A DNA stretch of 64,000 bases, taken from Rhodothermales bacterium. GTDB lineage: Bacteria > Bacteroidota > Rhodothermia > Rhodothermales > VXPQ01. The translations under genes were made by a program, and so were the position numbers. Where the stretch lies: NCBI GenBank assembly GCA_965232485.1, contig OZ246975.1, positions 2,027,246 to 2,091,245 of the forward strand, given 5' to 3'. The notes beneath the pieces are model-generated. The model was not told where the DNA came from and did no database searches. It saw only the letters and a list, made by a program, of their open reading frames with translations. Below, piece after piece: positions 440 through 21,300 of the stretch (its first letter is position 1; the number at the start of each line of letters is the position of its first letter).

Positions 440-1663
440 ATGAACACGCATTCGGGCAAGTTTCCCAATCCTTTCCGGCCGGGGGCCGGGCATCAGCCCC
501 CTTACCTTGCGGGACGCGAGACGGAAAAGCAAGCATTTGGCCGGCTCCTCGAACAAGAGGTCATCCTTGAAAACATGGTGCTGACCGGCCTGCGCGGGGT
601 TGGAAAGACGGTGTTGCTTGAAACCCTGAAGCCCCTTGCACTTGATCGCGGATGGCTGTGGGTCGGGGCCGATCTAAGTGAAACCGCCAGCCTGCGGGAA
701 GAGCATATGGCCACTCGGCTATGCACCGATCTGTCGCTTGTAACTTCCTCTGTGGTGGCGTCTGTCAGGCAAGTTCAGCCTTTGGGGTTCGGCGCGAGCA
801 CAAAAACGGTGGAGAACCGGCTTGACTACCGGACCCTGACGGATATCTATCGGCAAACGCCAGGGCTTGCGCTCGACAAAATCAAAACGGTGCTCGAAAC
901 AGCGTGGGCAGCGCTGGCCCACACGGAAATACGCGGAATCGTTTTTGCCTACGACGAAGCCCAAAACCTTGCCGACCATGCCGACAAGGAGCAATTTCCC
1001 CTCTCGCTGCTTCTGGATACATTCCAGTCTATACAAAGGAAAGAACTTCCTCTGATGCTCGTATTGACGGGACTGCCAACGCTCTTTCCGTCGCTCGTGG
1101 AGTCGCGGACTTTTTCCGAACGCATGTTTCGCGTGGTTTTTCTCGACCGTCTTTCGGAAGACGATAGCCGCGAAGCGATTCAGCGGCCTGTCGCCAATAC
1201 GAAAGGAACCGTGCAACTGAGTGATAACTCCGTAGACATGATCGTGAAAATGTCCGGCGGTTATCCATACTTCATCCAGTTTATTTGCAAGGAAGTGTAT
1301 GATGCGTTTATCCAGCGTATAGACAGGGGCGAAGACGCCTCCGTGCCTACCTCAGAGATCATGCAGAAGCTGGATACGGATTTCTTTGCCGGGAGATGGA
1401 GTCGGGTAACGGACCGGCAGCGGGAACTGATGCTCGTCATCGCGCAACTGGATAGTAGCGACAGCGAATTCACTGTACAGGAGGTGGTGAAAAAATCCAA
1501 TGCCGTACTTGACAAGCCATTCAGCAGCAGTCACGTAAATCAGATGCTATCGACGCTGAGCGCCCGTGGCATGGTTTTTAAGAACAGGCATGGTCGATAC
1601 TCCTTCGCGATACCGCTTTTGGCGAGTTATATCCGGCGCCAAATGGATGGAACGGGAGAGTAA
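440..1663 (+). CDS. AAA-type ATPase with C-terminal winged-helix-like tail (ORC/Cdc6- or Arch_ATPase-like; function unknown)
   Basis: 407-aa ORF. AGGAGG (428-433) lies 6 nt upstream of the ATG, behind an AT-rich stretch. Walker A LTGLRGVGKTVLL and Walker B-like IVFAYDEAQN are present. Family assigned from motifs only. Confidence 0.75.
   Translation: MNTHSGKFPNPFRPGAGHQPPYLAGRETEKQAFGRLLEQEVILENMVLTGLRGVGKTVLLETLKPLALDRGWLWVGADLSETASLREEHMATRLCTDLSLVTSSVVASVRQVQPLGFGASTKTVENRLDYRTLTDIYRQTPGLALDKIKTVLETAWAALAHTEIRGIVFAYDEAQNLADHADKEQFPLSLLLDTFQSIQRKELPLMLVLTGLPTLFPSLVESRTFSERMFRVVFLDRLSEDDSREAIQRPVANTKGTVQLSDNSVDMIVKMSGGYPYFIQFICKEVYDAFIQRIDRGEDASVPTSEIMQKLDTDFFAGRWSRVTDRQRELMLVIAQLDSSDSEFTVQEVVKKSNAVLDKPFSSSHVNQMLSTLSARGMVFKNRHGRYSFAIPLLASYIRRQMDGTGE
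594..1644 (+). repeat. 1051-bp direct repeat, copy 1 (inside the intact ATPase gene)
   Basis: Aligns with 5109..6159 at a constant offset of 4515 bp. I found 3 mismatches by eye (756, 1073, 1627). Identity stops sharply at both ends. Confidence 0.9.
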
Positions 1664-1802: not shown

Positions 1803-2560
1803 CTAAAGCAATGCGTCGACGATGAGCACGAAGACGACGAAGCCGAGGAATACAACGTCGAGTTTTTCGAAGCGCGAGAAGATGCGCCTAAACCCCTTCA
1901 GACGCCGGAACAAACGCTCGATTTCGTTGCGCCGCTTGTACATCTCGCGGTCGTACTCCCAAGGGGCAAGGCGGTTTCTCTTCGGCGGAACGACGGGTAC
2001 GAACCCGAGGTCAAGCGCCAACTGGCGCGTACTGTCGTCTTCGTACGCACGATCCATCACCAACGCAGGACTGTTCGATGGCCTCTCCATGCCGCTCAAG
2101 AGCTTGCGGCCTTCGGGCGCGTCGTGCGCCTGGCCGGGAGAGAGCGAGAACGAGAGGGCCGTTCGAGCATCCGCGGCAACCATATGAATCTTGGCGCTCC
2201 AGCCGCCACGAGACTTGCCGATGGCTTGCGGACCGTTTTTTTTTCCGCGCCCGTACCGTCCGGATGGACCTTGACGCTGGTGCTATCCAGCCCCACCGCC
2301 TCGATCTTGATGCGCACGATTTGCTGCAGTTGCAGGTGCTCGAACACGCGGTCCAGAACGCCGTTTTTCGACCAGCGGTTCATTCGCGTGTAGATAGTGT
2401 GCCAATTGCCAAAGCGTTCGGGCAGTCCGCGCCACTTGCAGCCGTGCTCGGCCACGTAAAGGATCGCGTTAAGCACCTGAATATTCGACAGGCTCACGTT
2501 TCCGCGCTGTTTCGGCAGCAGCGGCGCGATCCGTTCAAACTGGGCCTCCGTGAGTTTCAT
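1803..2560 (-). CDS. IS5-family DDE transposase, two overlapping frames joined by a -1 frameshift
   Basis: The upstream frame starts MKLTEAQFERIAPLLPKQRGN (ATG at 2560). The downstream frame contains KIHMVAADARTALSFSLSPGQAHDAPEGRKLL...YKRRNEIERLFRRLKGFRRIFSRFEKLD. Shifting -1 at the A9 run gives the continuous sequence ...GTGAEKKNGPQAIGKSRGGWSAKIHMV... Confidence 0.85.
2236..2244 (-). other. A9 slippery run (A_AAA_AAA), candidate programmed -1 ribosomal frameshift site of the transposase
   Basis: Nine consecutive T on the plus strand, located where the two transposase frames overlap. The zero frame reads GAA AAA AAA ACG. Confidence 0.6.
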
Positions 2561-3085
2561 GTTCTGATGTTCTGAATTTAGCCTTATATTTCCGCGTCCC
2601 GAAATAACGCAACGAAGGACATCATGTTTCCTGTTAGTGTTAACACGCTCTAAAAGCAATAAAGAAGGCTTTCGGCATGGGCGGGGATGAAGACAGGAGC
2701 ATTCGCCCCCTATAAAGCCCCCTACGCGCCCGTAGCCCGGCTTTGAGGCGAACGGCGAATTTGCCCGGCCAACGCCCGGAAACGCCGTCTGCGGGCGTTC
2801 TGGTGCGCTGGACGCGAACCCCTGAAACCATGAAAAGCGACGATCCCGGCCCGAACTGCATCCAGACGGGAACCGGATTCCGAATCAGAACGCCGAATCC
2901 ATTCCCCTGTCCCAGTGCGGCAAGCAGAAAGGCGGCGTTATGCTCTGGCCATCGAGGAGCAAGAAGGGTTTTTGCTCCGTGCGCTGGTTTTGTTACCCTT
3001 GCCGGACGGAATGCCTCATCGAGGAGTACGACGGGATTCCCGAACCCCACAGGAACGCCGCCCGGAAACGCCTTTGCGCAGGGGC

Positions 3086-4778: not shown

Positions 4779-5144
4779 TTGGACGCATTGTGGGCGTACC
4801 GGCTTGACCTTTCCGGCATAGGGACGCGCCGGGCGCAGAAAACGGCGCGGGCTATCTTGCTTGAACTTGTCGGGATGATCAAATGGAACCCGGACGCGGA
4901 CGACTACGGCCAGGCATGGCCAACCGTCGCAAAGATTGCGGCGCGGATAGACCGTAAACCGCGGGGCGTACAGTACATCATGCGGCGGCTTGAAGCGTCC
5001 GGCTACGTCGTTCGGAGCATCCGCAAGCGTTCCGACGGGGGCAACGCATCGAACCTTTACGCGCTGAATCCGGCGGCGCGGGGTGTGGATAACCCCGCAG
5101 TTTGTGCAGCGGGGTTGGAAAGACGGTGTTGCTTGAAACCCTGA
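4779..5144 (+). CDS. winged-helix DNA-binding protein, plasmid/phage replication-initiator-like; its 3' end runs into the repeat junction
   Basis: 121-aa ORF. The segment WPTVAKIAARIDRKPRGVQYIMRRLEASGYVVRSIRKRSDGGNASNLYALN looks like an HTH/wHTH of small Rep-type proteins. The last ~12 codons lie beyond the junction at 5109. Confidence 0.4.
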   Translation: MDALWAYRLDLSGIGTRRAQKTARAILLELVGMIKWNPDADDYGQAWPTVAKIAARIDRKPRGVQYIMRRLEASGYVVRSIRKRSDGGNASNLYALNPAARGVDNPAVCAAGLERRCCLKP

Positions 5145-6163
5145 AGCCCCTTGCACTTGATCGCGGATGGCTGTGGGTCGGGGCCGATCTAAGTGAAACC
5201 GCCAGCCTGCGGGAAGAGCATATGGCCACTCGGCTATGCACCGATCTGTCGCTTGTAACTTCCTCTGTGGCGGCGTCTGTCAGGCAAGTTCAGCCTTTGG
5301 GGTTCGGCGCGAGCACAAAAACGGTGGAGAACCGGCTTGACTACCGGACCCTGACGGATATCTATCGGCAAACGCCAGGGCTTGCGCTCGACAAAATCAA
5401 AACGGTGCTCGAAACAGCGTGGGCAGCGCTGGCCCACACGGAAATACGCGGAATCGTTTTTGCCTACGACGAAGCCCAAAACCTTGCCGACCATGCCGAC
5501 AAGGAGCAATTTCCCCTCTCGCTGCTTCTGGATACATTCCAGTCTATACAAAGGAAAGAACTTCCTCTGATGCTCGTATTGACGGGATTGCCAACGCTCT
5601 TTCCGTCGCTCGTGGAGTCGCGGACTTTTTCCGAACGCATGTTTCGCGTGGTTTTTCTCGACCGTCTTTCGGAAGACGATAGCCGCGAAGCGATTCAGCG
5701 GCCTGTCGCCAATACGAAAGGAACCGTGCAACTGAGTGATAACTCCGTAGACATGATCGTGAAAATGTCCGGCGGTTATCCATACTTCATCCAGTTTATT
5801 TGCAAGGAAGTGTATGATGCGTTTATCCAGCGTATAGACAGGGGCGAAGACGCCTCCGTGCCTACCTCAGAGATCATGCAGAAGCTGGATACGGATTTCT
5901 TTGCCGGGAGATGGAGTCGGGTAACGGACCGGCAGCGGGAACTGATGCTCGTCATCGCGCAACTGGATAGTAGCGACAGCGAATTCACTGTACAGGAGGT
6001 GGTGAAAAAATCCAATGCCGTACTTGACAAGCCATTCAGCAGCAGTCACGTAAATCAGATGCTATCGACGCTGAGCGCCCGTGGCATGGTTTTTAAGAAC
6101 AGGCATGGTCGATACTCCTTCGCGATACCGCTTTTGGCGAGCTATATCCGGCGCCAAATATAA
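5102..6163 (+). pseudogene. 5'-truncated second copy of the AAA ATPase gene
   Basis: Homology to copy 1 begins inside the Walker A codons (copy 1 residue ~52). It has no equivalent N-terminus, RBS or promoter. The C-terminus differs (..RRQI* versus ..RRQMDGTGE*). Confidence 0.7.
5109..6159 (+). repeat. 1051-bp direct repeat, copy 2
   Basis: See copy 1; offset 4515 bp, near-identical. Confidence 0.9.
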
Positions 6164-6195
6164 TGTGGAATGATACGTTGCGGGCGAGCGAGGTT

Positions 6196-6996
6196 TCACG
6201 GTTCGGTACTACTTTCTTTCGGGGCCCGTTTGCGGGTCCGCCTGGACTCGCCCAGAATCCACCGGGGCTTCAGATCGAGATGGAATCGCGTGTTGGCCGC
6301 CTTGACAATAGCGGAAACGGCCTCTTCGGGGGAATCGGTGATCGTCCATCGCTCGGCGTCTTCCGGACTGATCGTGCCTTCCCGAACCATCGCGCCGGAA
6401 ACGAAGTCGATCATTTCCGACCAGTATTCGGCGCCCATCACGACGACAGGCAAATCCAGAATTTTGCCGGTTTGCACCAGCGTAAGCGTTTCGAATATCT
6501 CGTCCATGGTGCCAAAACCGCCCGGCAACACCACGAAGGCATAAGAGTATTTGACCAACATCACCTTACGGACGAAAAAGTGGTTGAAATCCACCCACTG
6601 GTCCAGATACGGGTTGCGTTCCTGTTCCTCGGGAAGTTCGATGCTGCAACCTATACTGAACCCGCCCGCCTCCTTGGCTCCGCGGTTGGCGGCTTCCATG
6701 ACGCCGGGGCCTCCTCCAGTCATCACCGTGAACCCTGCATTGGCCAGTTCGCTGCCCACTTGTCGAGCCAGCTGGTAGTAAACATGATCTTCGGGGAAGC
6801 GAGCCGAGCCGAAAACCGTCACGCAAGGCCCGACAAAATGCAGTTTGCGAAAGCCCCGGAGGAATTCGAGAAAGATGCGACCGGCCCGGATCAGTTCGGC
6901 CAGCCGCCTGCCCGGCCCGCTCAGGAAAAAGCGTTCTTCAAGCGTGCTTTTTTCGGTGCGCGCAGATCCTGGGGTTGTGTTCTTCGATATTTTCAC
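6196..6996 (-). CDS. LOG / TIGR00730-family Rossmann-fold nucleotide-binding protein (lysine-decarboxylase-like)
   Basis: Motifs: VFGSARF...VMTGGGPGVMEAANRGA...VVLPGGFGTMDEIFE (PGGxGTxxE). GTG start. Confidence 0.85.
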   Translation of the reverse strand: MKISKNTTPGSARTEKSTLEERFFLSGPGRRLAELIRAGRIFLEFLRGFRKLHFVGPCVTVFGSARFPEDHVYYQLARQVGSELANAGFTVMTGGGPGVMEAANRGAKEAGGFSIGCSIELPEEQERNPYLDQWVDFNHFFVRKVMLVKYSYAFVVLPGGFGTMDEIFETLTLVQTGKILDLPVVVMGAEYWSEMIDFVSGAMVREGTISPEDAERWTITDSPEEAVSAIVKAANTRFHLDLKPRWILGESRRTRKRAPKESSTEP

Positions 6997-7255
6997 TTGC
7001 CTGGATTGGATAGTATGAGCAATGCGGTCGAGCCCTCAACTAAAGCCTGTGCAGGATCGTCAAGGACAAAGATACTTGCTCGAACGACGAGGCGCTCCCG
7101 GAATGGGTAATAATCAGAAAAAGTAAATATACCGTATTACCCGTGTTTGCCAATATTGAGCATGCGCGCCGATATTTTTAAACAAGTTATTATTTTTAAG
7201 AATTTATAATAAAATAATGATTGGCGCGGAAACGTTTCCAGAACAAGCGCCCGCG

Positions 7256-7779: not shown

Positions 7780-8331
7780 CTACCGTATAGCTACCTTTGC
7801 GCACAACTCCGACCGGTGTGGATTCCGGTCCACCCCAGGCGGACTCGCAAGGGGACACAGTCGCAACACTCCGTGAACCATGGCGCCGCCCTCTGCAGCC
7901 TGATCCCATACCTTTGCCTGCTGTTTCCATAGCACTGCTTCCTGCTCCCATATTTCCGCCTCGCGTTCCTGTGCTTCCACGACCCCCCACCACCTCTCCG
8001 GGGTTTCAATCCGGGCCATATAAGATGCCTCCGCCGCCAATCTCCGCACCGTTTTCGCATGCTGGAACGCCTCTGCCGCCGCAGCCCTCGCCTGCACCGC
8101 CAATGCGTCGTATTCTGCTGCATTCCGGGAATCGTTACGAACCGCCCGCGCCAGGGTGGCGAATGCCGCCGGACGCGTCGCTCTTATCTTTTTCCTCTGG
8201 GCCTCTTCCCGTTGATCATGATCATTGATTGAGCCGCCCGTCGTGCCTTCCCATGTCTGCCCTTGCGCTGCGCAGGGCAGCATAGCAAGCATAATCGCCA
8301 GGATGGCAATGCGTACAGCTGATCGCTTCAT
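7780..8331 (-). CDS. hypothetical secreted protein, Ala/Glu-rich helical
   Basis: Signal peptide MKRSAVRIAILAIMLAMLPCAAQG. No recognisable domain. Confidence 0.45.
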   Translation of the reverse strand: MKRSAVRIAILAIMLAMLPCAAQGQTWEGTTGGSINDHDQREEAQRKKIRATRPAAFATLARAVRNDSRNAAEYDALAVQARAAAAEAFQHAKTVRRLAAEASYMARIETPERWWGVVEAQEREAEIWEQEAVLWKQQAKVWDQAAEGGAMVHGVLRLCPLASPPGVDRNPHRSELCAKVAIR

Positions 8332-8389: not shown

Positions 8390-9760
8390 TCAAGTGTTCT
8401 TGGCAGCGAACCGCCTTATTTCGTCTTCGCTGCGGGGATGGCAGGCACGGTGCACGAGCGCGGCGTTTTCGATCGAGGTCGGGCCTCCCTCGCTGTGGGG
8501 TTCGATGTGATGGAACTCCGCCTCGTTCCAAACGACCTCCTTGCCACAAGCTCCGCACTTCCGCTCATCCCGCCAGTAGACAATCTCACGCTCCAAGGAG
8601 CCTAAAACGCGTCGGCCATCCCGGAGCTTCGGCTGCATGTGCTCCTGCATCTTGGTGCAGAAGAAGAGGTGTCGGTCGCGTATGGCATGCGCCACGTCGC
8701 TACTAGTTCTCGCCTTGTAGCCGTATTGTCGCATGTACTCGAAGTCTCCAGGTTTCATTTCGGCTTGCCCAGCACGCTCGCGAGTCCTGGCTTGGGTGAG
8801 GCGTTCCGTGAAACGGTCGAACGCATCAGCAAACGTTGTCTGCCAAGACTCGGGGACGTATTGAGGATCGAGTAGGGTGCCGACCAACAACACCAAATGG
8901 ATCGCCTGATGACCGACCAGCAAAGGTCGCTTCCCGTCGACCAGCAGCTCGGTCACTGTGCCAATGGCGGCAAGGAATTCCTTGGCGAGCGGCGAGTTGT
9001 TGTCGAACTCCATGTGCTTCACATAGTAGGAATCGACGGCTTTCCGGTTGATGTCGCAGAAACGTCCGTCCTCTCGGTAGGTGGCGAACAACATGACCAT
9101 TTGAGCGGCGAGTTGACGTCCCTTCGGCGTATTGGCCCGAACGTTGGCCCGCAGGAGTTTCCTGAAGAAGTCTTGGCCGGGGTATTTGGCCACGTCCTTC
9201 TTGCCTGCCACCTGACAGACGAAGGCACCGAACGCTCCCGGCCACGCATCCCTCTGCTCTTGAGGCGTCAACGGCTTGCCACCCTGCAACCGAATGAAGA
9301 GGTCGCGCACTTCGTTCTCGTCCTCGGTTTCGATGTGGACCACGGACAGCGGCATCTGGAAGAAGCGCGTGCGTGTACGATCATCCAGTTGATGCATGTC
9401 CCTCCCCGCCCACTCGCAAGGCGAATCGATGAGCGACTTCGGAAAACGCCCCGGGTGCTCTCGTGGATCGAGTAGGGGAAAAGCTCCTTCGGAGAACTCG
9501 TAGAGTGCATGGACCCGCTGCTGACCATCGATGATGTACAGCCGGTCGCCGATTTGGAAGCCACTCACCTCGTTCCCCTTCTTGAAGTGCAGGTAGATCA
9601 GCGGGATGTGGTAGCCTCGGAGAATCGAGTCTATGAAGTACTGCTTCTGTAGGCGCGTCCACACGGGTCCGCGCTGGTATTCGGGGTCCACCTCCAACAG
9701 CTTCTTCTTCTGTAGTGTGAGGAGTTCCTTGACGGTCTGTTGCTTTGGGGTCGATTTCAT
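8390..9760 (-). CDS. DUF262 (ParB/GmrS-like NTPase) fused to a C-terminal zinc-finger HNH nuclease
   Basis: 456 aa. The N-terminus has DPEYQRGPVW (QR at 29-30), IIDGQQR (78-82) and FIRLQGGKPLTPQE. The C-terminus has C402-x2-C405, H417-H418, N432, H437 and C440-H441. Confidence 0.85.
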   Translation of the reverse strand: MKSTPKQQTVKELLTLQKKKLLEVDPEYQRGPVWTRLQKQYFIDSILRGYHIPLIYLHFKKGNEVSGFQIGDRLYIIDGQQRVHALYEFSEGAFPLLDPREHPGRFPKSLIDSPCEWAGRDMHQLDDRTRTRFFQMPLSVVHIETEDENEVRDLFIRLQGGKPLTPQEQRDAWPGAFGAFVCQVAGKKDVAKYPGQDFFRKLLRANVRANTPKGRQLAAQMVMLFATYREDGRFCDINRKAVDSYYVKHMEFDNNSPLAKEFLAAIGTVTELLVDGKRPLLVGHQAIHLVLLVGTLLDPQYVPESWQTTFADAFDRFTERLTQARTRERAGQAEMKPGDFEYMRQYGYKARTSSDVAHAIRDRHLFFCTKMQEHMQPKLRDGRRVLGSLEREIVYWRDERKCGACGKEVVWNEAEFHHIEPHSEGGPTSIENAALVHRACHPRSEDEIRRFAAKNT

Positions 9761-9890: not shown

Positions 9891-12800
9891 TTAGGCCGTG
9901 TACTCTTTCAATCTTTGGTACCGGGGATCATTCTGTATCTCCGGCTTCGCCTGCAAAATGTCCTTTAGACACTGGTTTAGTTCGGGATGCGACCATGGCT
10001 GATCGCTAATGACAGCGTACAGCAAACACAGCGTTGCATTCGGGAATCTTGCACAGAAATCGCCCTCCTGCAGCTGGTGGACAACGTAGTGGGAATACGC
10101 AAGCGGCTGGAGCCAACCGTGGATCAAATCCACCGCATCTGGAAATTTCTCTCCAGCGGCTATGCTCATCAATGCAAGTGACTCCGTGATGTCATCAGAA
10201 ACCAATTCGAGCGATTTTGGCCACATCTCTTGCCAAAAAGGCTGGATACGATTGCTCCAGTAGTCCTCGCGTTGCGCACCTGCGCTTTCAAGCGCTTGCG
10301 AGAGAATTCGTGCCGCTTCCTGCAACCCCTCCTCCTGTGGCAGGGCACTGAACGCCTGCCGAAATCCTGTCGCCTCATCTTTGTCCGTGCATTCCAGCGC
10401 CGCGTAGGTCAGAACTGCAACATACTGCCGCTTGAACTCACCCAAGTCGTCGTAGTGGCTCGCGGTTTCAATGAACTGCGGCCTGAAAGCATCCAGCAGG
10501 GGCCGATAAAGGCGTGGAGACCAGAGGAAGCCTTCCCAGACTATTTGGGCTTCTATGGGATTCTTTGTCCATCGGAAAAGGGGCAACAGATACTGCTCGG
10601 TCCAGGATCGGTCAACCCGAAACAGCGTAATCAATCTTGACGCCAACACTGCTCTACCATGACGGAACTGTTCTACCTGCGTATCACACATTTTCGTGAA
10701 GAGAGGCTCAAGGCCGTCAGGCAGGCGGTCATTGTCGTTCGGCTCGCGCCGGAACCAAAGAGACAACAGCGCTTGGGTAACAAGGCCGACCGGATGGTTG
10801 ATTGCTTCAGTGACAGAGCGCTGGATCCGTTCGCCACCCTGAGTTATTGTTAGGCCAGAACCAGATTCGAAGGGTGAATTCAGAATACGCCGGCACAAAT
10901 CAAGCAGGATTTCATCATGTCCCTCGCCGGATTTGGACGTAGCGTATAGCCACCAGGCAACACCGTGTGCAATCTCCTGCAAAATATTATCAGGCATGGT
11001 CGCTACCAGCGGAGCCGCATAGCGCCACGACCGCTGTACCATATCTTCCTCGCTCCACACCTGTAATGCTTCTCGCCAACGGCTTGCCGGCCAGATGCCT
11101 TGTTGAGCCAAGTCGCAAAGAGCAACAAAGCTCAAGGGGAACTGAGTGCGACATGTATCAGGCCAAGTGTCCTCATCGGACCAATGCTTCTTGGGCGGAG
11201 GAGTCCTTAGCCATTGAACCAAGTCGCGCCGGTTGCGAGGTGCAATATTGATCTCCCTGTTGTCTTCGTAGTCTGGATCTCCGGTTCCACTAATCCAGAG
11301 CGGGAATTCTTCGGGCTCGTGAGGAAGCAATTCCCATGAAGTATTGGTCGAAGACAAGGTATCGAAGCGGCTTTGTGCGGCCTTCCCCAAGTCCAGCCCT
11401 GATGCGTTCAGTTTCGCCAGACGCAACCACACTGAGCGTTTCACAATTTTTTCCCAGTGTGCAGGCTCAAGGTCTTCTGGGTACATGTCGCGCGGAGGAC
11501 CATCCAGAATAGCGGCTTCGAGCATATCCTGAGATGAAGACAGGCAGTGACCTTGTAGCGCCAAGAGGCGCATGACTTCGCGTTGTGTTTCTTCGGACCA
11601 CAGCCACCAACATGCATCACACAGTAACCAGTCAGACCATTGAACCGAATCAATGCATCCATCTTGGCTGGCGGCGAAAAAGGCGAGACGCTTGAACGTG
11701 GGATACGGAAGTTCAAACCATTCCTCTGCAATCCGAGTCGCCCTTGCAAGGTCATCTTCCTGAACAACCTGCCAGGCATCGCGCAGAAGTTCGATCAGTA
11801 TCACCCAGTCGCGGGAGCGCCGATTCTGCCAGTGCGGTTCGATTGAGGGCAGGCCCACAAACGAACCGTCGCTGCGGTCAACTGCCCCGCCTAATTCGCG
11901 CAGGAGATCCAAGGCGTCGCGCAACAATTGCTGTAGATCATCCAATAGCACGGGCAAGGCGGCTCGCCAATGTTCATCGGTCCGATCGCCAATAACCGAT
12001 TGAACATGGTCAGCGGCAAGCACAAGTTCCCAGTCGGGAATGTGTCTCGAGTGCTCGGAAGAATCCGGTTTAACAAGTTCATCAGGCCATCGGAACGGCC
12101 TTCTCAAGGCAATCATGGGCGAAAGAAATTCCCGCAACTTCATACGCAGGGATACAGTCAGGCCGTCGCGCTTCAGGTGATCCACCCACCGGGAAAGACT
12201 GATATCGCCTCGAAAAGATTTCACGCGCCCCCTCAACAATAGACGCCAAAGTAGCCGCATCCTTTCGTCAGGAATAGCCTTTGGAGAATTCGCGCGAATC
12301 TTATCCAGTTCGTCGCTTTTGCCTTCGCGGTTCAGTTTGTCAAGGCGATCAAGCTCGTCCTCGATCAACCCCGCCAATTTCTCATGCAGTCGACTTCCAT
12401 TTTCCACCAGCCAGTAGATCAGCTGAGGGTCGTTAAGGTGTCGCGTCAGCCAGTGGGCGACATAACGCATCACGGCATCCCAACCAGTGTCGCGATTACT
12501 CCCGATGAGCGTCATCCATGGAGTGCGCCCGTAGGATGCAGGTCGATTTATGAAGCTGAACCGGAGATCAGAGTCAATGGGCGGTCGGGACGAGATGCCG
12601 AAGCGACTCAAATCGTCATACCGAAAGCGATTCTCGGAAAATACCGTCAACCACTCGATTGGCGGCGCTGGATTGAGCTCCGCGAAACGCTTGGCTGGAA
12701 GTCCTGATTTATCCGAAAGCGCCCAGAGTACGCGCCCTACGAAGTCATCCTGCTGGGTGCTTGCAGAGGGCCGCGCCAACGCATGTTGAACCACAATCTG

Positions 12801-13712
12801 CTCCTTGCCAAAGACTCCATCGCGGTGGGTTTCCCCCCAGAGTTTCAATGTCTGATGCAGCGCGGCATGGCGGTTCTTTCCTGAACGAACTTCGTAGAGA
12901 ATCGGAAAGACTCCCTTGGACTCCCATGCAATGGATTGGGTCATTTTCTCACCAGGATCGTAACCTCCCAAGGCGTAGGCTTGGGGTGTTGCTTCGCCCA
13001 GCATCCGGTCGGCAGCCAACGCATCCATCATGTAGCGCAACACCGGATCGTTGATGCTATACCCGACAAAACACACCACATAGTTGCGAAACAACTCGCT
13101 GACGAAGCGCGCTGCCCATCGCTCGGTCAGGTAAGCCAAGCCAAAATCGCCGCTGGTAACAACGAGCCTGTGCAGTGCGATCTCGTCTTCGTCCGGTTTC
13201 GAGGGCAACAATCCGTGCAAATAGACGAGCCCATCCCAGCGGCTGGTCTTTGGAATGGGGAGTGTCGGTGCGGTATATGGATGGTACGACTGCTTGCTTC
13301 GTCTGGCAGCGTGCTCAAATATCTGATCGAAATTGGTGGTAACGAGTCGTAGATTCCCATCGCGACCCCGGGCCAGATGGAGGAGCGCGGTGTGGGTATC
13401 GGTAGCCCCGCGGCGTCTGAGTTTGGGTTTCAGGACCTCTGCCAATTCCTTTCGAACGGCGATTCGCTGTCCAGGAAATCGACGTTCCAGCAAGTCTAAG
13501 GCTATGTCGAACTGTTCCCGCTCATAGGCTTTGGCTTCAATCTCGGTAGGATTTGTACCCAATCGCCCATAAATCTTGTCCACCAACCCCTTGAAGCCCG
13601 GCAATCCTGCGGGATAGGAAATGCCCGCTCCACAGAAGAACACTGCGCGGTCCTCTTCGTGCGCCTGCAGAAGAGCATCTGGAATGTCCGGGCCGTTGCT
13701 TATGAATTGCAT
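9891..13712 (-). CDS. 1273-aa protein: N-terminal SIR2-like (SIR2_2) NADase domain plus a ~1000-aa Trp-rich helical C-terminal region; DSR1/DSR2-like architecture
   Basis: Motifs: FFCGAGIS (28-32), VTTNFD (Asn127), YLHG (His166), CFVGYSINDP. The remainder has no motif I recognise. GC looks lower than in the core genes. Confidence 0.85.
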   Translation of the reverse strand: MQFISNGPDIPDALLQAHEEDRAVFFCGAGISYPAGLPGFKGLVDKIYGRLGTNPTEIEAKAYEREQFDIALDLLERRFPGQRIAVRKELAEVLKPKLRRRGATDTHTALLHLARGRDGNLRLVTTNFDQIFEHAARRSKQSYHPYTAPTLPIPKTSRWDGLVYLHGLLPSKPDEDEIALHRLVVTSGDFGLAYLTERWAARFVSELFRNYVVCFVGYSINDPVLRYMMDALAADRMLGEATPQAYALGGYDPGEKMTQSIAWESKGVFPILYEVRSGKNRHAALHQTLKLWGETHRDGVFGKEQIVVQHALARPSASTQQDDFVGRVLWALSDKSGLPAKRFAELNPAPPIEWLTVFSENRFRYDDLSRFGISSRPPIDSDLRFSFINRPASYGRTPWMTLIGSNRDTGWDAVMRYVAHWLTRHLNDPQLIYWLVENGSRLHEKLAGLIEDELDRLDKLNREGKSDELDKIRANSPKAIPDERMRLLWRLLLRGRVKSFRGDISLSRWVDHLKRDGLTVSLRMKLREFLSPMIALRRPFRWPDELVKPDSSEHSRHIPDWELVLAADHVQSVIGDRTDEHWRAALPVLLDDLQQLLRDALDLLRELGGAVDRSDGSFVGLPSIEPHWQNRRSRDWVILIELLRDAWQVVQEDDLARATRIAEEWFELPYPTFKRLAFFAASQDGCIDSVQWSDWLLCDACWWLWSEETQREVMRLLALQGHCLSSSQDMLEAAILDGPPRDMYPEDLEPAHWEKIVKRSVWLRLAKLNASGLDLGKAAQSRFDTLSSTNTSWELLPHEPEEFPLWISGTGDPDYEDNREINIAPRNRRDLVQWLRTPPPKKHWSDEDTWPDTCRTQFPLSFVALCDLAQQGIWPASRWREALQVWSEEDMVQRSWRYAAPLVATMPDNILQEIAHGVAWWLYATSKSGEGHDEILLDLCRRILNSPFESGSGLTITQGGERIQRSVTEAINHPVGLVTQALLSLWFRREPNDNDRLPDGLEPLFTKMCDTQVEQFRHGRAVLASRLITLFRVDRSWTEQYLLPLFRWTKNPIEAQIVWEGFLWSPRLYRPLLDAFRPQFIETASHYDDLGEFKRQYVAVLTYAALECTDKDEATGFRQAFSALPQEEGLQEAARILSQALESAGAQREDYWSNRIQPFWQEMWPKSLELVSDDITESLALMSIAAGEKFPDAVDLIHGWLQPLAYSHYVVHQLQEGDFCARFPNATLCLLYAVISDQPWSHPELNQCLKDILQAKPEIQNDPRYQRLKEYTA

Positions 13713-13805: not shown

Positions 13806-16361
13806 TCACCCCCGAAACAGCATCTCATTCAGCCGCGCTTGCCACTCCTCCTCGTCAACGACCTCAAAGCGCACTACCTTGCTTCGCATTGCAGGAACGA
13901 ATTGGGCCCAATCTGCCTTGCGGGCATGGTCGCTACAGATATCGAAGACGGACCGCTTGTATTCAGTGTCTTCCGACCCCTTCAGGTGAACGCCTTTGGT
14001 TTCGACTACGAAAACCTGGTGAAAGTCATCATCTGCTTCGGACTCGTCGTCCCGCAACGTCACGATGAAATCGGCGTATATCCGACGTGGCCTCCATCCC
14101 TGCACATAGTAATCCTTGCGAGCACGGTTGCGATACCAAAAGAAGAGCCGGGCTTGTTGATCCAGATAGGTCGCCACCTTGTTCTCGAACTGGTTGAGAT
14201 CATCCTCTGTGGTGACATCGAAAAGGTTCCGCTGGTAGGGGCTGCCGTCCTCCCGGTTCGCCTGCTTCGCTTGTGGAACCTCAATTTTTTCGGGAAGGCT
14301 ATTGAAATCGAGATCCTCTGTGACAACCAGAAAGCGCATCTTGCCTGACTCCAGGAGACGGCGAAAGACTTCCCGCGACAAGCGGTCGCGCTCCATCTCA
14401 ATCTGTCGGCGCAGCTCCTCGAGGATAAAAACATGATTGGCCGCCACGCGCTCGAATGGATAACGCTCAAGCAGTACCCTGAAAGTACGGCGAGCCAAAT
14501 CGCACCCTCGCCACGGATTGGGCACCAGATCCAGCAGGTGGCTGGCAGCAAAAAAGTAATCCACGGGGTCGGTATCGCTGCTTGCCCCAGACCCATTCGT
14601 TGTTTCAACCCCGGAAACATCAAACCCCGGAATGCTTGCGTCATCCGTCAGGTTTGCTCGCAACGCCACATCTCCTTGATTGCCCTCGCCCATATTCAGA
14701 TCGCCCAATGGACTAATGTCGATGTCGCCCCAGGGCACCCTTGAGAGGATGTCCGCCTCGTAATGAACCAGACGCCAACCATCCACACCTCGAATCATAA
14801 AGACAGGGAGGACCAGATCGCGCGCTGCTTTCCGGTAATTATCCCGCTGCCGAGTCATCTGTTTCTCCGCTGGCCCGGTCAGACTTTCATTGGAAACTAC
14901 TCTTCCTTCCAGTCCCTGCAAGCCCTCCAGCCCGAATCCTTTCCTAACTTCTCTCAACAACTCGTTTGCACGACGACTGAAACAGAAGACATAGCTCTCG
15001 TCAAGCCAAGCCACCCTGGTTTTCTGTGCATACGGCTGTCGCAAAATACGCCCGACCAACTGCGTGATCCCCGTTCTTGACATTGGGTTGGTGAGGATCG
15101 TCAGAATGTAGGCGAACGAACAATCCCAACCTTCCTGTAGCGCCTGTTTGGTGATGATGAAACGGATCGAACAGTCACGGGACATCAGACCGCCTATGTC
15201 GTCCACCTCCTTGAGATCGTCTTGTACGCTGGTCTTGACCGCAATGTGCTCCGCGCCGATTCCCGGGTGCTGGAGCAGGTACTCGCGCACGTCGTCGGTG
15301 TGAACGTATCCGGGCTTGCGCTGCTCTTTGCCGGTTCTTTCGACCTGGATTACGCAAATGGGCCGGATGTAGCTCCCGGTCTCCGCTTCGTGCCGCTGCG
15401 CTTCCACCTCCAGGTGCTCGCGGTGTTCGATCGACGCAAGCAACGTATTCCGCCAGTCGTTGCTTGCCTTGTTAAGAATGTGCAGGTCCAGCTTGATCAT
15501 CTCTTCGGCGTTAAGCTCCTGGCCCCGGATCTCGACGAGCACATTGGCGCCCTTGGTTGGCGTGGCCGAAAGCTCCACAATCATGCACGGGTTGAAACCT
15601 TCGAGCGTCGCTTTTGCGTTGGCGCTGTACGCCTTGTGTCCCTCGTCAAGGATGATCAGGGGCCGTAGCAGACGCACTGTGTTGCCAAGCGAGGTCTTGA
15701 TGTAGCGGCCCCAGAAGCCTGTCGTTTGCTCGAAGGTATCGAGATTGGGATATTCCTCCAGCATTTTGGCGTGCGCCGGGGAATCGTCGTCCGGAGGAAA
15801 AAACCGGTCGAAGCCCCCGCTGTCGCGAAACATCCGCAGTGTATCCTTCGTCTGCCGGTTAGCCGACGGAAGCATGAGCAAAAGGATACAAAGGTTCTCA
15901 GCGACATCGCGCGGGCCAAAGGCCATGGTTTTCTCAAGGATGAGCGTACGCTGCCCTGACGCCAGATCGATCTGTTGGCGATAAGGGTGGTCGCGATCCT
16001 TGAGCGCCTTGAGCGTCTGATTGTATATCTGCGTTGTAGGCACGATCCACAGAACGAGCCCGCGCTGATTCTGCCGGAAATGTACGTTGACAAGGTCAAT
16101 CACCTTGGTTGCAAGCAATGTCTTGCCGCCGCCAGTCGGAACCTTGAGGCAGAAAGTAGGCAAATAGTCGCCGAGTCCGTTGCGACGAGGAATACATATC
16201 CTCCCGGGTACTGTCTTGCTCCATGCCCGTTGAACCCAGTCGAAACCCCAATCGGGGTTCTGGCTTCGGGCATCCCCGTCCGCTTTCCTCCACTTTGCGA
16301 GATTCTCAAGGAAATCGTGTACTGTTTCCAGCGTTCGCTTTTGGTATTCCTTCAGGATCAT
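13806..16361 (-). CDS. res: Type III restriction endonuclease, Res subunit (SF2 helicase plus C-terminal PD-(D/E)xK)
   Basis: 851 aa. Walker A VPTGGGKTLLA, DEGH box LIILDEGHKAY, and a C-terminal YADFIV...VFVVETKG nuclease-like motif. The start overlaps the mod stop (ATGA). Confidence 0.9.
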   Translation of the reverse strand: MILKEYQKRTLETVHDFLENLAKWRKADGDARSQNPDWGFDWVQRAWSKTVPGRICIPRRNGLGDYLPTFCLKVPTGGGKTLLATKVIDLVNVHFRQNQRGLVLWIVPTTQIYNQTLKALKDRDHPYRQQIDLASGQRTLILEKTMAFGPRDVAENLCILLLMLPSANRQTKDTLRMFRDSGGFDRFFPPDDDSPAHAKMLEEYPNLDTFEQTTGFWGRYIKTSLGNTVRLLRPLIILDEGHKAYSANAKATLEGFNPCMIVELSATPTKGANVLVEIRGQELNAEEMIKLDLHILNKASNDWRNTLLASIEHREHLEVEAQRHEAETGSYIRPICVIQVERTGKEQRKPGYVHTDDVREYLLQHPGIGAEHIAVKTSVQDDLKEVDDIGGLMSRDCSIRFIITKQALQEGWDCSFAYILTILTNPMSRTGITQLVGRILRQPYAQKTRVAWLDESYVFCFSRRANELLREVRKGFGLEGLQGLEGRVVSNESLTGPAEKQMTRQRDNYRKAARDLVLPVFMIRGVDGWRLVHYEADILSRVPWGDIDISPLGDLNMGEGNQGDVALRANLTDDASIPGFDVSGVETTNGSGASSDTDPVDYFFAASHLLDLVPNPWRGCDLARRTFRVLLERYPFERVAANHVFILEELRRQIEMERDRLSREVFRRLLESGKMRFLVVTEDLDFNSLPEKIEVPQAKQANREDGSPYQRNLFDVTTEDDLNQFENKVATYLDQQARLFFWYRNRARKDYYVQGWRPRRIYADFIVTLRDDESEADDDFHQVFVVETKGVHLKGSEDTEYKRSVFDICSDHARKADWAQFVPAMRSKVVRFEVVDEEEWQARLNEMLFRG

Positions 16362-18262
16362 GGTTCCAGCCTCTCGATCGCCTCGTATATCTGAAAGGGC
16401 AACTGCTGGAAATCGATCCGGTATTCGTGAAGAAACTCTGGATCCAGGTACTTGGCGGGTGCAAAGACGAGCCGCTTACGCTTGCTGCTGGGCAGAGTGC
16501 GGGCGACAGGAAGGGTCAGCGCGAGATTCTTGAGCTTTTCGACATTCGGCTCATAGAGAAGAAAAACATCATGCGACGCGGTGCGACCGACAAACCCGGT
16601 GTCACTGTTAGTCTCGGCCGGGTCGAACTCCTGTCCGGTCGCTGTGAAGAAGATGTACGAGGCGAGCTTCTCCCACGACGGGAGGTGGGAGCCGTCGAGG
16701 AGCGACTCCTGGCGCATGGGGCGCCCAAGCTCGAAGTAGCTGAAGGTGCCACCGAGGCCCTCAGTATGTTCGACAACTGCCGTCTCACCAGCGACGACGA
16801 GTTTTCCTTTCTCGAATTGCCTCGATATTTGGTCGTAATCGTCCCTGTACTGCTCCTCAATGGCCTTCACGGACCCTGTCAGTTTGTCGCTTAGCTTCGC
16901 CCATGTGATCTCCTCCCGCATCAACTCTGTCTTCTGGGTACCCGTGAAGGCGTATCCGTTGATGACGCGCCGGACGCGCTCGGCAGTGATCGTGTCCGCA
17001 TAGTCCTCGCACTCGACCAAAATGAAACGCCGGTTGCCACCGTCCTCCCGGTTCTGGGCGAGGACAGCGTGGGCCGTAGTGCCGGAACCAGCGAAAGAAT
17101 CGAGAACGATGGAGTCGGGGTCCGTGGCGATCTGGAGGATGCGGCGAACGAGGCGAGACGGCTTGACGGTGTTGAATACGTCTTCGGATCGCTCGAATTG
17201 GAGCGCGGAGACCAGTTCTTTCTTTGCTTCCTGCGTGTTGCCAACATCGGTGTGAAGCCAAAGTGTCTGCGGGACGACTCCCTTCCTCACATCGGTCAGG
17301 AATCGCTTGAGGCGAGGCATGCTGTTGCCACCCTTTCCCCACCAAACCCGCCCGTCCTTATCCAGTTCAGCGAACTTCTTGGGAGATACGCGAAAGTAGT
17401 TGCCGACCGACGGCTTGAACTTCTTTCCAGCGGGGCTGGTAACCTCGTAGGTGCCTTGACCGTAGAAATTTCGTGCCGTCAAGTCGCTGGAGGACCACGG
17501 CCCCCGTGGATCATCATCAGGATTCTTGTAACGTCCAGTCGCCCGCTCACTACGCGCTATCAAGTTTGGGCGCCATGCTTCAATGCGCCGCGCGTACGCC
17601 ATCACGTAGTCGTGATCTTCCGAGAAGTATTTCGCGGTGTTCTTCGGGGAAAAGACTTTCTGCCATATGGCGGTGGCCAAGAAGTTTTCCTCGCCGAACA
17701 CCTCGTCCATCAGAGAGCGCAGGTGATGCACTTCGTTGTCGTCGATGGACACGAAGATCGCCCCGTCCTCCCGGAGCAGTTCGCGCAGCAGCTTCAGGCG
17801 CGGCGTCATCATGCAGCACCACTTGTCGTGGCGGGTCAAGTCGTCTCGGTCTACCACCTTGCCCAACCAGTTCTTCATCAGCGGCGAAGTCACGTTGTCG
17901 TTGTACGCCCAGCCCTCGTTCCCCGTGTTGTAAGGCGGGTCGATGTACACGCACTTCACCTTGCCGTGATAGGTCGGCAACAGCGACTTGAGCGCGGCCA
18001 GGTTGTCGCCGTGGATGATCAGGTTATCGCGCAGGCTTGCCTTCTCGCTCAGCCCCTTCTCACGCACTGGCAGCAGCTCGTGGAAGGGCACAGCCAAGTG
18101 ATGGTTCTCGACAAAGACCTTGCCCTTGAAATGGAGTCGCGGCAAAGGATCCCTCCTCTGAAATCTATTATTTAACGTGCATCCACTGCTTTGCCCACTA
18201 GCGCTACGGAACGCCTGCCTTAAACTAAGCCCCGTATTGTCGCCGCACAACCCGTTTTCCAT
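16358..18262 (-). CDS. mod: Type III R-M DNA methyltransferase, Mod subunit (beta-class N6A/N4C MTase)
   Basis: 634 aa. VYIDPPYNTG (motif IV) precedes DSFAGSGTTAHAV (motif I). The first ~40 codons are uncertain. Confidence 0.9.
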   Translation of the reverse strand: MENGLCGDNTGLSLRQAFRSASGQSSGCTLNNRFQRRDPLPRLHFKGKVFVENHHLAVPFHELLPVREKGLSEKASLRDNLIIHGDNLAALKSLLPTYHGKVKCVYIDPPYNTGNEGWAYNDNVTSPLMKNWLGKVVDRDDLTRHDKWCCMMTPRLKLLRELLREDGAIFVSIDDNEVHHLRSLMDEVFGEENFLATAIWQKVFSPKNTAKYFSEDHDYVMAYARRIEAWRPNLIARSERATGRYKNPDDDPRGPWSSSDLTARNFYGQGTYEVTSPAGKKFKPSVGNYFRVSPKKFAELDKDGRVWWGKGGNSMPRLKRFLTDVRKGVVPQTLWLHTDVGNTQEAKKELVSALQFERSEDVFNTVKPSRLVRRILQIATDPDSIVLDSFAGSGTTAHAVLAQNREDGGNRRFILVECEDYADTITAERVRRVINGYAFTGTQKTELMREEITWAKLSDKLTGSVKAIEEQYRDDYDQISRQFEKGKLVVAGETAVVEHTEGLGGTFSYFELGRPMRQESLLDGSHLPSWEKLASYIFFTATGQEFDPAETNSDTGFVGRTASHDVFLLYEPNVEKLKNLALTLPVARTLPSSKRKRLVFAPAKYLDPEFLHEYRIDFQQLPFQIYEAIERLEP

Positions 18263-18390: not shown

Positions 18391-21300
18391 TTGCGATCAA
18401 ATCATCCCGCCAGTCAGGAAGCAATCGGCCCAAATGCCTCATCCTGCGAACATCCCGACCCGTTTCGTCGTTTTTCGATGCGCCCGGCGCGAAACCGCGC
18501 GCCAGCGCAACAGCCGTTTCACGTCTTTCCCGCCCAAAACCCGTTCGATCCCGTGGCGCTTGCTTCGATCCGCAGGCAACTGGCCTCCACGGACGTCTTT
18601 CGCAAGGCGTCCGCATGGTGTGAACGAATAGACCCCGAAGCCCCCTCTACGCTTCAAATAAAAGGGTTGGCCGGATCCGTCTCGTCCTTCCTGCTGGCCC
18701 GACTCCACGAAACGGCCAACGCGGCGAATATCCTCTGCGTCTACATTGCGCCGAACGAGGAAATAGCCGCCTGGGCCTTCGGAGACATTGCCCAGCTGGT
18801 CGAGGAAGACGAGGGCGCCCTGCAACTGCCGGCCACGGGACACAAACCCTACGACGCCGAACAACTGGACGATCTGGCCCCGATCATCGCCCGGACCGAT
18901 GTGCTGCAACAAATCGCCGACGGATTCCACGGCCTGGTCGTAACGAGCGTCGAGGCGCTTGTGGAAATGACTCCCCCCGCGGAAACGATCCGAAACCGCA
19001 CGATCTCCATCGCTACGGGAATGGTCTTTCCGCCGGAGAAACTGGCGCAGCGCCTGGTGAAATTGGGTTTCGAGCACGCCGAGTTCGTGGAGCGACCCGG
19101 AGAAATAGCGCTTCGGGGCGGCATCCTCGACATCTATCCATTCACCGGCTCGTGGCCCATCCGGGCAGAATTCTTCGGCGACGACATCGAATCCCTGCGC
19201 GAATTCGACCCCCGGTCGCAACGATCCATCAGCCGCCTGACCACCGCCCGCCTCGTTCCGAATACGGGGAACGATCTGTCCGACGCCAGCGCCCGCGCAT
19301 CCATCTTCGAACAATTTCCCGAACGCGCGCTGCTTGTCACGACGGACGAAGAAGGGCTGACAGAACACGCCGCCAAGCGATTCGAAGCCACCGAAAAAGC
19401 CTGGCGCCATGCGCTGCGCGAAATCCCCGAAGCGCCCGTCCCCGCCACGCGGTATCTCTCTGGCGAAGCCTTCGAGCAAGCTTTGCTCCTTCGTAATCGG
19501 ATACTGCTTGGCTCGTTCGGCGGCGGCGGCGAACGCCTCCTTCGGTTCGACGCCGCCCCGCAACCGGACTTCAATGGGAATATCGGCCTGCTTCGCACGC
19601 GCATTCTGACCAACGCCGAACGCGGCGTGCGCACCTTTATCCTTTGCGATAGTCGAGGGCAAGAGGTTCGCCTGTCCGAACTCCTCGGCGACGAAACAGC
19701 CCAGGAAAATGTTCGCATCTCCATCGAATCGCTGCACGAAGGATTCGAAATTCCCTCGCTTGGCCTGGCCGTCTACACGGATCATCAGATATTCAATCGT
19801 TACCACCGTCCCTCCGTGCGCGGGCAAAAGAAACGGTACGGCGGACTGGGCCTGCAAGCGCTGAAAAATCTCTCGCCCGGCGATTTCGTGGTCCATGTGG
19901 ATTACGGAATCGGCCGCTTCGCCGGACTGCATCGCATCACGGTGCGCGAAAAACAGCAGGAATCCGTCAAAGTGCTTTTTCGGGACGAGGACATCCTGTA
20001 TGTCAATGTCAATGCGCTCCACAAACTCCACAAATATTCCGGCAAGGACGGGCGGCCGCCCACGCTCACCAAGCTGGGTTCCGGGCAATGGGAGCGCACG
20101 AAATCCCGCGCCAAAGGCAAGGTCAAGGATATTGCGCGAGACCTGATCGCGCTCTACGCAAAGCGAAAACAATCCGCCGGGGTCGCTTTTTCCCCGGACA
20201 CGATCTGGCAGCGGGAAATGGAAGCCTCGTTCCGCTACGAGGACACGCCAGACCAGACCGCCGCCACAGACGCCGTCAAAGCCGATATGGAAACGGCGGC
20301 GCCCATGGATCGGCTGATCTGCGGAGACGTCGGATTCGGCAAAACGGAAGTCGCTGTCCGGGCAGCCTTCAAGGCGGCGCAGGACGGTAAACAGGTGGCG
20401 ATCCTGGCCCCCACCACCATCCTTGCCGCGCAACATTTCAAAACCTTCTCGAAAAGGCTGGAAAAATATCCGGTCTATGTGGAGATGTTGTCGCGTTTCC
20501 GCTCCGCCGCCGAGCAAAAACAGATCGTCCGGCGCCTCGCGGACGGCGATGTGGACATTGTGGTGGGGACGCATCGCCTGACTTCGCAGGATATCCGGTT
20601 CAAAGACCTGGGCCTGCTCATTATCGACGAAGAGCAACGCTTCGGGGTAGCCGTCAAGGAACGCCTGCGAAAACTGCGCGCCGAGGTGGATACGCTTACC
20701 CTTACCGCAACGCCCATCCCCCGAACGCTTCAATTCTCTCTGCTGGGCGCCCGGGATTTATCGCTCGTCACCACGCCGCCCCCGAACCGGCAACCGGTCA
20801 ACACGGAGATCCATACTTTCGACAAGGACCTGATCCGGGACGCCATCCTGTACGAAGTCAGTCGAGGCGGACAGGTCTTCTTTCTGCACAACAACATCTG
20901 CACTATCGACGAAATGGCCGACAGCCTGCGCCTCATCGTCCCGAACGTTCGCATGCGAACGGCGCACGGGCAAATGAAATCGAGCGCGCTGGAACAGGTC
21001 ATGGCGGATTTTATCGGCGGACGGTTCGACGTACTCGTGAGCACCAGCATCATTGAGAACGGCCTCGACATACCCAACGCCAATACGATCATTATCGATC
21101 GGGCGGACCGGTTCGGTCTCGCCGAACTGCACCAGCTTCGCGGGCGCGTCGGGCGTTCGGACCGAAAAGCCTTCTGCTACCTGCTTGTTTCGTCCATCCA
21201 CGGACTCACGCGCGAAGCGCGGCAACGACTGCAAGCCGTCGAGGAATTTTCGGACCTCGGGGGCGGATTCAATCTGGCCATGCGCGATCTGGATATCCGG

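Follow-up and report, generated by a model that had tools for sequence, protein, structure and literature searches.

What is the role of a protein in which a DUF262 domain is followed not by a DUF1524 nuclease but by a classical zinc-finger HNH, and does it act on its own or together with the defence genes beside which it is encoded? DUF262 sensors are central to several anti-phage systems, including GmrSD/BrxU, SspE, DndI, Menshen, Dazbog, and PD-T4-2, and to our knowledge the biochemistry of DUF262 has been studied only for the DUF1524-fused forms. The protein considered here is encoded by a single open reading frame of 456 codons (ATG start, 456 aa; 8390-9760, minus strand) within a stretch of 64,000 nucleotides of contig OZ246975.1 from a Rhodothermales bacterium, referred to below as the window, and comprises a DUF262 domain, a helical domain, and an HNH domain. 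An initial annotation had raised the alternatives that it targets modified phage DNA in the manner of type IV enzymes or that it serves as the nuclease arm of the SIR2 gene upstream. Domains, motifs, and context were found to be as described there, and the observation is therefore confirmed, with small corrections to the length of the middle region and to motif III, which reads FxxxQ.

The start codon is supported by the homologues, which begin at the equivalent position. Pfam assigned residues 11-172 to GmrSD_N/DUF262 (PF03235; E 7e-20, 72 bits against a cut-off of 33) and residues 402-444 to HNH (PF01844; E 2.8e-11, 44 bits against a cut-off of 21), while a scan of the 456-aa protein at E<=0.01 gave no match to DUF1524/GmrSD_C (PF07510), the (D/E)H(I)xP nuclease, the C-terminus being the PF01844 HNH. 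The two assignments lie far beyond chance, and the domain reading, in which a DUF262 NTPase-type domain is joined to a classical zinc-finger HNH replacing DUF1524, is right. The motifs quoted originally (QR, DGQQR, CxxC, HH, N, and H) were all located, with Q29R30, W34, D78GQQR82, C402, C405, H417H418, N432, H437, C440, and H441 invariant in a family alignment of 28 members sharing 45-88% identity with the query. A full-length AlphaFold2 model built from this alignment (mean pLDDT 82.8) was compared with the PDB using Foldseek; the best match was BrxU, a type IV enzyme of the GmrSD family (7p9k, E 5.5e-6). ParB and Noc came next, their CTP-binding N-terminal domains matching the N-terminus, and the C-terminus matched the HNH domains of Nme1Cas9, Gme HNH, EcoKMcrA, and ScoMcrA.

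The N-terminal ParB/Srx-type DUF262 domain (GmrSD_N; residues 11-172, 9245-9730, minus strand) is predicted to be the NTP-binding and DNA-sensing module. Its motif I, Q29-R30-G-P-V-W34 (QRxxxW; 9659-9676, minus strand), and motif II, D78-G-Q-Q-R82 (9515-9529, minus strand), are both family-invariant, the latter being the predicted nucleotide-binding centre in line with the role described for the DGQQR motif elsewhere (PMC12065111, PMC11662687, bioRxiv 10.1101/2024.01.29.577857). Motif III takes the form FxxxQ (F155..Q159) throughout the family, against the usual FxxxN. Adjoining it, residues 159-171 (G-G-K-P-L-T-P-Q-E-Q-R-D-A; nt 9248-9286) are near-invariant across the family and form the lowest-confidence part of the model, with a pLDDT below 50; they are probably a mobile functional loop of the DUF262 domain.

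At the other end of the protein lies a classical HNH (ββα-Me) domain with a CCHC zinc site (residues 402-444, 8429-8557, minus strand), for which strands at 413-417 and 432-436 and a helix at 444-454 are predicted. From the conserved residues, C402, C405, H437, and C440 are likely the zinc ligands, and H417/H418, N432, and H441 likely form the catalytic and metal-binding set. By sequence, the domain comes nearest to its counterparts in a group II intron maturase, Cas9, and IscB; taken together, the fold and sequence matches thus identify the nuclease as a compact, zinc-stabilised ββα-Me module, and all the features of an HNH endonuclease (the fold, a catalytic His, a structural Asn, a metal-binding His, and Cys/His zinc ligands) are predicted from sequence and model. 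The likeness to EcoKMcrA, ScoMcrA, Cas9, IscB, and the group II intron proteins is one of the HNH only: the same PF01844 ββα-Me fold occupies the C-terminal 45 residues, the Cys/His zinc-ligand pattern being taken from the protein's own sequence, whereas the reader of McrA-type enzymes is an McrA N-terminal, SBD, or SRA domain and that of the present protein is DUF262 plus a ParBDB-like domain. The label 'McrA' has been given by JGI to several family members; the RefSeq name is only "DUF262 domain-containing protein".

Between the two domains, a region of some 300 residues had been set aside as unassignable. It is in fact about 230 residues long (173-401; 8558-9244, minus strand) and all-helical, with ten helices in an AlphaFold2 model of residues 173-400 alone (pLDDT 88.7, pTM 0.85), and neither Foldseek nor a sequence profile found any PDB relative of the domain. 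For its first ~100 residues, however, a probable assignment can be made. Alignment of the family with that of NsnA, the sensor of the Menshen system NsnABC, using hhalign gave a probability of 99.6% and an E-value of 2e-24 over 254 columns, pairing query residues 1-274 with residues 23-288 of the 375 of NsnA and covering ParB-DUF262 together with some 100 residues at the start of helical ParBDB; the first ~100 middle-region residues (173-~275; 8936-9244, minus strand) therefore probably correspond to the start of the C-terminal domain of NsnA. The NsnA family was seeded with a Klebsiella plasmid-encoded protein (362 bits against the PADLOC NsnA model) that has NsnB adjoining it, and in a BLASTP comparison with this protein the alignment reaches residue 285. 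The name ParBDB comes from a 2025 study, whose authors treat the domain as equivalent to the helical domains in the middle of GmrSD, SspE, and DndB (PMC12065111). Only for the C-terminal half of the helical domain does the original description stand, as the NsnA alignment stops short of it and no relative was detected by Foldseek or profile searches.

With a BrxU family, for which the pEFER plasmid gene was the starting point, the same comparison yielded no more than 79 aligned columns, surrounding the QR and DGQQR motifs of DUF262, which places the sensor half nearer to NsnA than to GmrSD/BrxU. Consistent with this order, the best PADLOC match of the protein is NsnA (4.5e-24), its closest relative by sequence, with which it has the QRxxxW and DGxQR motifs in common. 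The two differ in motif III, FxxxN in NsnA against FxxxQ here, and in the C-terminal half of the helical domain, which remains unaligned; moreover, NsnA is without a nuclease and acts together with the ABC ATPase NsnB and the effector NsnC, whereas in the present protein an HNH is fused in cis. In overall design, the likeness is instead to the single-chain type IV enzymes GmrSD/BrxU, which are stand-alone and likewise run from DUF262 at the N-terminus through a helical middle to a His-Me-finger nuclease at the C-terminus, and whose homologues include some with the accessory domain DUF4357, also found in one member of the family. Their nuclease is DUF1524 as opposed to the compact PF01844 HNH with its CCHC zinc site, the present protein is ~130 aa shorter, and profile homology is confined to the 79 DUF262 columns. 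A further DUF262 domain, that of PD-T4-2 component A, matches residues 12-184 (E 3e-10) with the likeness limited to DUF262; PD-T4-2 is catalogued as a separate DUF262-containing system without the DUF1524 nuclease. The protein should accordingly be filed neither under GmrSD, as it has no DUF1524, nor under Menshen, as it has no NsnB or NsnC; in all likelihood it works like GmrSD, while its sensor ancestry is common with NsnA.

DUF1524 is itself a His-Me/HNH-type domain, and DUF262 pairs with many effectors, so the fusion is not very surprising to a specialist. PADLOC holds no dedicated model for this unnamed family, and a literature search found no paper describing or testing a fusion of DUF262 to a PF01844 HNH. 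A 2025 paper in which single-gene GmrSD variants are said to carry "HNH or DUF1524" was considered as a precedent and rejected, the supplementary gene tables having the HNH wording in the COG1479 name with no PF01844 assignment.

The rarity implied for this architecture is not borne out. A word-indexed search returned 1,457 clusters at 90% identity (E<=1e-5), almost all of the best 120 being of 440-500 aa with both PF03235 and PF01844, and when 1.84 billion representatives at 50% identity were searched exhaustively with a profile, 463 proteins were returned at E<=1e-30. In a scan of one genome per species, 184 loci were confirmed among 185,579 species genomes, and the best 80 of these, which were analysed in detail, span Gemmatimonadota, Chloroflexota, Planctomycetota, Acidobacteriota, Bacteroidota, Latescibacterota, and Alpha-, Beta-, and Gammaproteobacteria, placing the architecture in at least seven phyla on the strength of those 80. 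The closest copies, which are 66-82% identical over the full length, belong to other phyla (Gemmatimonadota, Chloroflexota, and Gammaproteobacteria) and several are found in sponge-associated genomes, which indicates horizontal transfer. Comparison with the closest homologues for which dS is defined gave dN/dS of 0.09-0.20, so that the gene is under purifying selection. A full-length relative turned up once in 72,556 plasmids and not at all in 50,697 phage records. Phage and giant-virus proteins of a similar DUF262-plus-helical fold do exist, two of them annotated with HNH domains, and DUF262-domain proteins are likewise encoded by Bacillus phage FADO (OM236516.1 / NC_073050.1, 42918-43373), itself a target of Menshen (PMC12065111), and by several other Bacillus phages, P2-like phages, and giant viruses.

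Several architectural variants were found among proteins P0363, P0364, P0366, P0369, P0440, P0441, and P0445. Tandem DUF262-DUF262-HNH proteins of 870-913 aa recall the GmrS1/GmrSD2 doublet of E. coli ECOR17 (PMC12373910), and the member with DUF4357 (P0369) is a DUF262-HNH-DUF4357 protein with the additional domain at its C-terminus. In some relatives, residues 1-367 are retained and the HNH is swapped for C-terminal tails of 160-240 aa, in which no domain was found by Pfam. Such tail swaps and added domains mark the DUF262 and helical domains as a single module, to which the HNH is attached as an effector that can be exchanged.

As to the genomic setting, the location downstream of a methyltransferase-containing restriction-modification (R-M) system and a SIR2 effector was borne out. 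In minus-strand order, the genes are a type III Mod (16358-18262), a type III Res (13806-16361, overlapping Mod by 4 nt), a full-length Dsr1 SIR2 protein (9891-13712; NCBI equivalog 1929 bits with a cut-off of 1400, PADLOC Dsr1 2012 bits), and the DUF262-HNH gene, which lies 4 kb downstream of the type III genes and 130 nt downstream of the SIR2 gene on the same strand. The core gene mfd (18391-21924, plus strand) marks the edge of the defence block. Across 1-18 kb the GC content is 0.50-0.58, and past that point it is 0.56-0.64 and mostly exceeds 0.58, a contrast that an acquired island would be expected to show. Two further open reading frames, one of 183 aa (7780-8331, minus strand) located 58 nt downstream of the DUF262-HNH gene and one of 315 aa (6163-7110, plus strand), have no match in Pfam, NCBIfam, or PADLOC; the former was considered as a partner and rejected, having no family match and no homologue in any of the 80 loci. 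The window also contains a direct duplication of 1,054 nt with five mismatches (594-1647 and 5109-6162), which spans most of a 407-aa AAA_16/AAA_22 ATPase gene (440-1663, plus strand) and a 5'-truncated copy (5102-6163, plus strand); a fragment of an IS4/5-family transposase (DUF4096, 2096-2659, minus strand) between the two ATPase copies suggests IS-mediated rearrangement.

When the 1,125 open reading frames lying up to 10 kb from the gene across the 80 loci were clustered, the commonest neighbour cluster occurred in six loci only. Searches of the 80 loci by tblastn found no counterpart of Dsr1, the type III Res and Mod, the 183-aa ORF, or the TonB-C gene of the window, and phmmer gave no real match among the 1,125 neighbour ORFs to Dsr1, Res, or Mod, both Mod/Res pairs having served as queries for the type III genes. 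Pfam and PADLOC annotation of the two genes on either side in 39 of the 80 loci was mixed, with no family in more than four loci and N6_N4_Mtase not recurrent; scattered defence genes were seen (Mrr-type enzymes, type II R-M, PbeA-like helicases, DRT, GajB, ThsB, and Uzume), as were many housekeeping genes (rpoC, transketolase, and efflux pumps). With no Dsr1, type III R-M, or other recurrent neighbour in the 80 loci, the gene is therefore an autonomous, stand-alone unit.

What such a unit does may be judged from its relatives. In GmrSD/BrxU, SspE, and DndI, the DUF262 domain binds or hydrolyses NTP at DGQQR, reads a feature of the DNA, and governs a His-Me nuclease that is part of the same polypeptide, whereas in Menshen the sensor controls a separate effector. 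Phages T2, T4, T6, and Fado carry hypermodified bases. All four are restricted by Menshen (PMC12065111). This phage range, together with the NTP, DNA, and nuclease logic of the DUF262 relatives, favours an NTP-gated nuclease acting on foreign, probably modified DNA, and it is accordingly considered probable, though by no means assured, that the protein is an autonomous, single-chain anti-phage nuclease whose DUF262/ParBDB half recognises such DNA and whose HNH cuts or nicks it. In the mechanism proposed, the ParB/DUF262 and helical ParBDB-like domains would form a sensor nearest to Menshen NsnA; this sensor would bind NTP in the DGQQR pocket and detect DNA that is foreign and probably carries modified bases; binding or hydrolysis of the NTP may then free or position the C-terminal zinc-stabilised HNH, which would nick or cut the recognised DNA. 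We infer NTPase activity, dimerisation, a DNA signal, and a defence phenotype for the protein, and its presumed specificity for modified DNA is extrapolated from GmrSD/BrxU and from the phages that Menshen restricts. A defence-gene setting is seen for the window copy and for a distant relative on a Rhizobium plasmid described below. Of the two roles raised at the outset, the type IV-like, GmrSD-like one is thus the best-supported function by homology, and the SIR2 alternative is not supported.

The protein could also be viewed as a single-chain Menshen, in which an NsnA-type sensor needs neither the NsnB ATPase nor the NsnC effector and uses its own HNH, and for which the trigger may not be base modification at all. 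The trigger might then be NTP-gated, ParB-like clamping or sliding on invading DNA, or else a phage protein. Neither NsnB nor NsnC genes adjoin the DUF262-HNH gene, its flanks being Dsr1 and the 183-aa ORF by Pfam and PADLOC, and no ATPase gene recurs as a neighbour in the 80 loci, whereas the reference Klebsiella NsnA does adjoin NsnB. This possibility is an improbable one, but if true, the protein would represent a mechanistically distinct class of stand-alone nuclease and a minimal model of infection sensing by NsnA, and the relatives with residues 1-367 and other tails would be further, effector-swapped members of that class.

It is unlikely that the protein is instead an SspE- or DndI-like effector, reading a host mark (phosphorothioate or other) laid down by a modification system elsewhere in the genome and nicking the unmarked invader. 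The logic would be the same, a mark-sensing DUF262 NTPase controlling a His-Me nickase, with a DGQQR NTPase and a His-Me nuclease likewise present in a single chain. SspE and DndI, however, have a DUF1524-type nuclease and are encoded beside, and depend on, the modification genes sspABCD or dndBCDE, while the DUF262-HNH family has no conserved neighbour in the 80 loci, and no Ssp or Dnd model of PADLOC matches the protein.

A role outside defence, whether as a selfish, homing-type HNH gene or as a housekeeping enzyme of DNA processing, is rated just as improbable. Such a role would agree with the resemblance of the HNH to those of group II intron maturase, IscB, and Cas9, with the many homologues lying amid housekeeping genes, and with the patchy distribution and transfer across phyla. 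Against it, no reverse transcriptase, transposase, or intron context recurs beside the homologues, the DUF262 lineages that include the sensor half are not known outside defence systems, and the plasmid and phage records searched gave the single full-length plasmid copy and no phage copy noted above; nor is this a core gene, because only the 184 confirmed matches were obtained from the 185,579 species genomes.

Less probable still is that the protein is an accessory or embedded part of type III R-M, acting for example as a second nuclease on DNA marked or translocated by Mod/Res. Mod and Res do lie 4 kb upstream on the same strand, and a 423-aa relative, full-length including the HNH and 32% identical, sits exactly between type III mod and res on the conjugative plasmid p7 of Rhizobium sp. 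NLR16a (L081, 1037-12730), a compact composite defence locus in which a DrmD-like SNF2 helicase precedes the relative and an LmuB-like SMC ATPase follows it. In the window, however, Dsr1 intervenes between Res and the DUF262-HNH gene, the two Mod/Res pairs found no real match among the 1,125 ORFs of the 80 loci, and N6_N4_Mtase does not recur within two genes of the gene in the 39 loci. The embedding of independent defence genes within other systems has been described (bioRxiv 10.1101/2024.01.29.577857), and the p7 arrangement fits that description without implying a general link to type III R-M. Partnership with type III R-M as a general rule was consequently rejected, no type III genes being present near the 80 chromosomal homologues.

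Lastly, the suggestion that the protein is the nuclease arm of the adjacent SIR2 protein, the pair forming a two-gene SIR2-plus-nuclease system, is very improbable: although the genes are on the same strand with no match to a σ70-type promoter or terminator in the 130 nt between them (a σ70 model that may not suit this organism), the neighbour matches the Dsr1 equivalog end to end (1929 bits), DSR1 is a known single-gene system that protects when cloned alone (bioRxiv 10.1101/2021.12.14.472415), and the co-occurrence check proposed initially found a Dsr1-like gene within 10 kb in none of the 80 loci, by tblastn or phmmer. The DUF262-HNH gene is hence an independent fourth layer of the defence island, alongside type III R-M and Dsr1, and not a part of the SIR2 system.

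The family to which it belongs is widespread in environmental bacteria, with 463 clusters at 50% identity. The DUF262-HNH protein is a candidate new modification-dependent restriction enzyme, and its coupling of an NsnA-like sensor directly to a small and well-understood HNH would offer a compact system in which recognition by NsnA-type DUF262/ParBDB modules, and its gating by NTP, may be studied.
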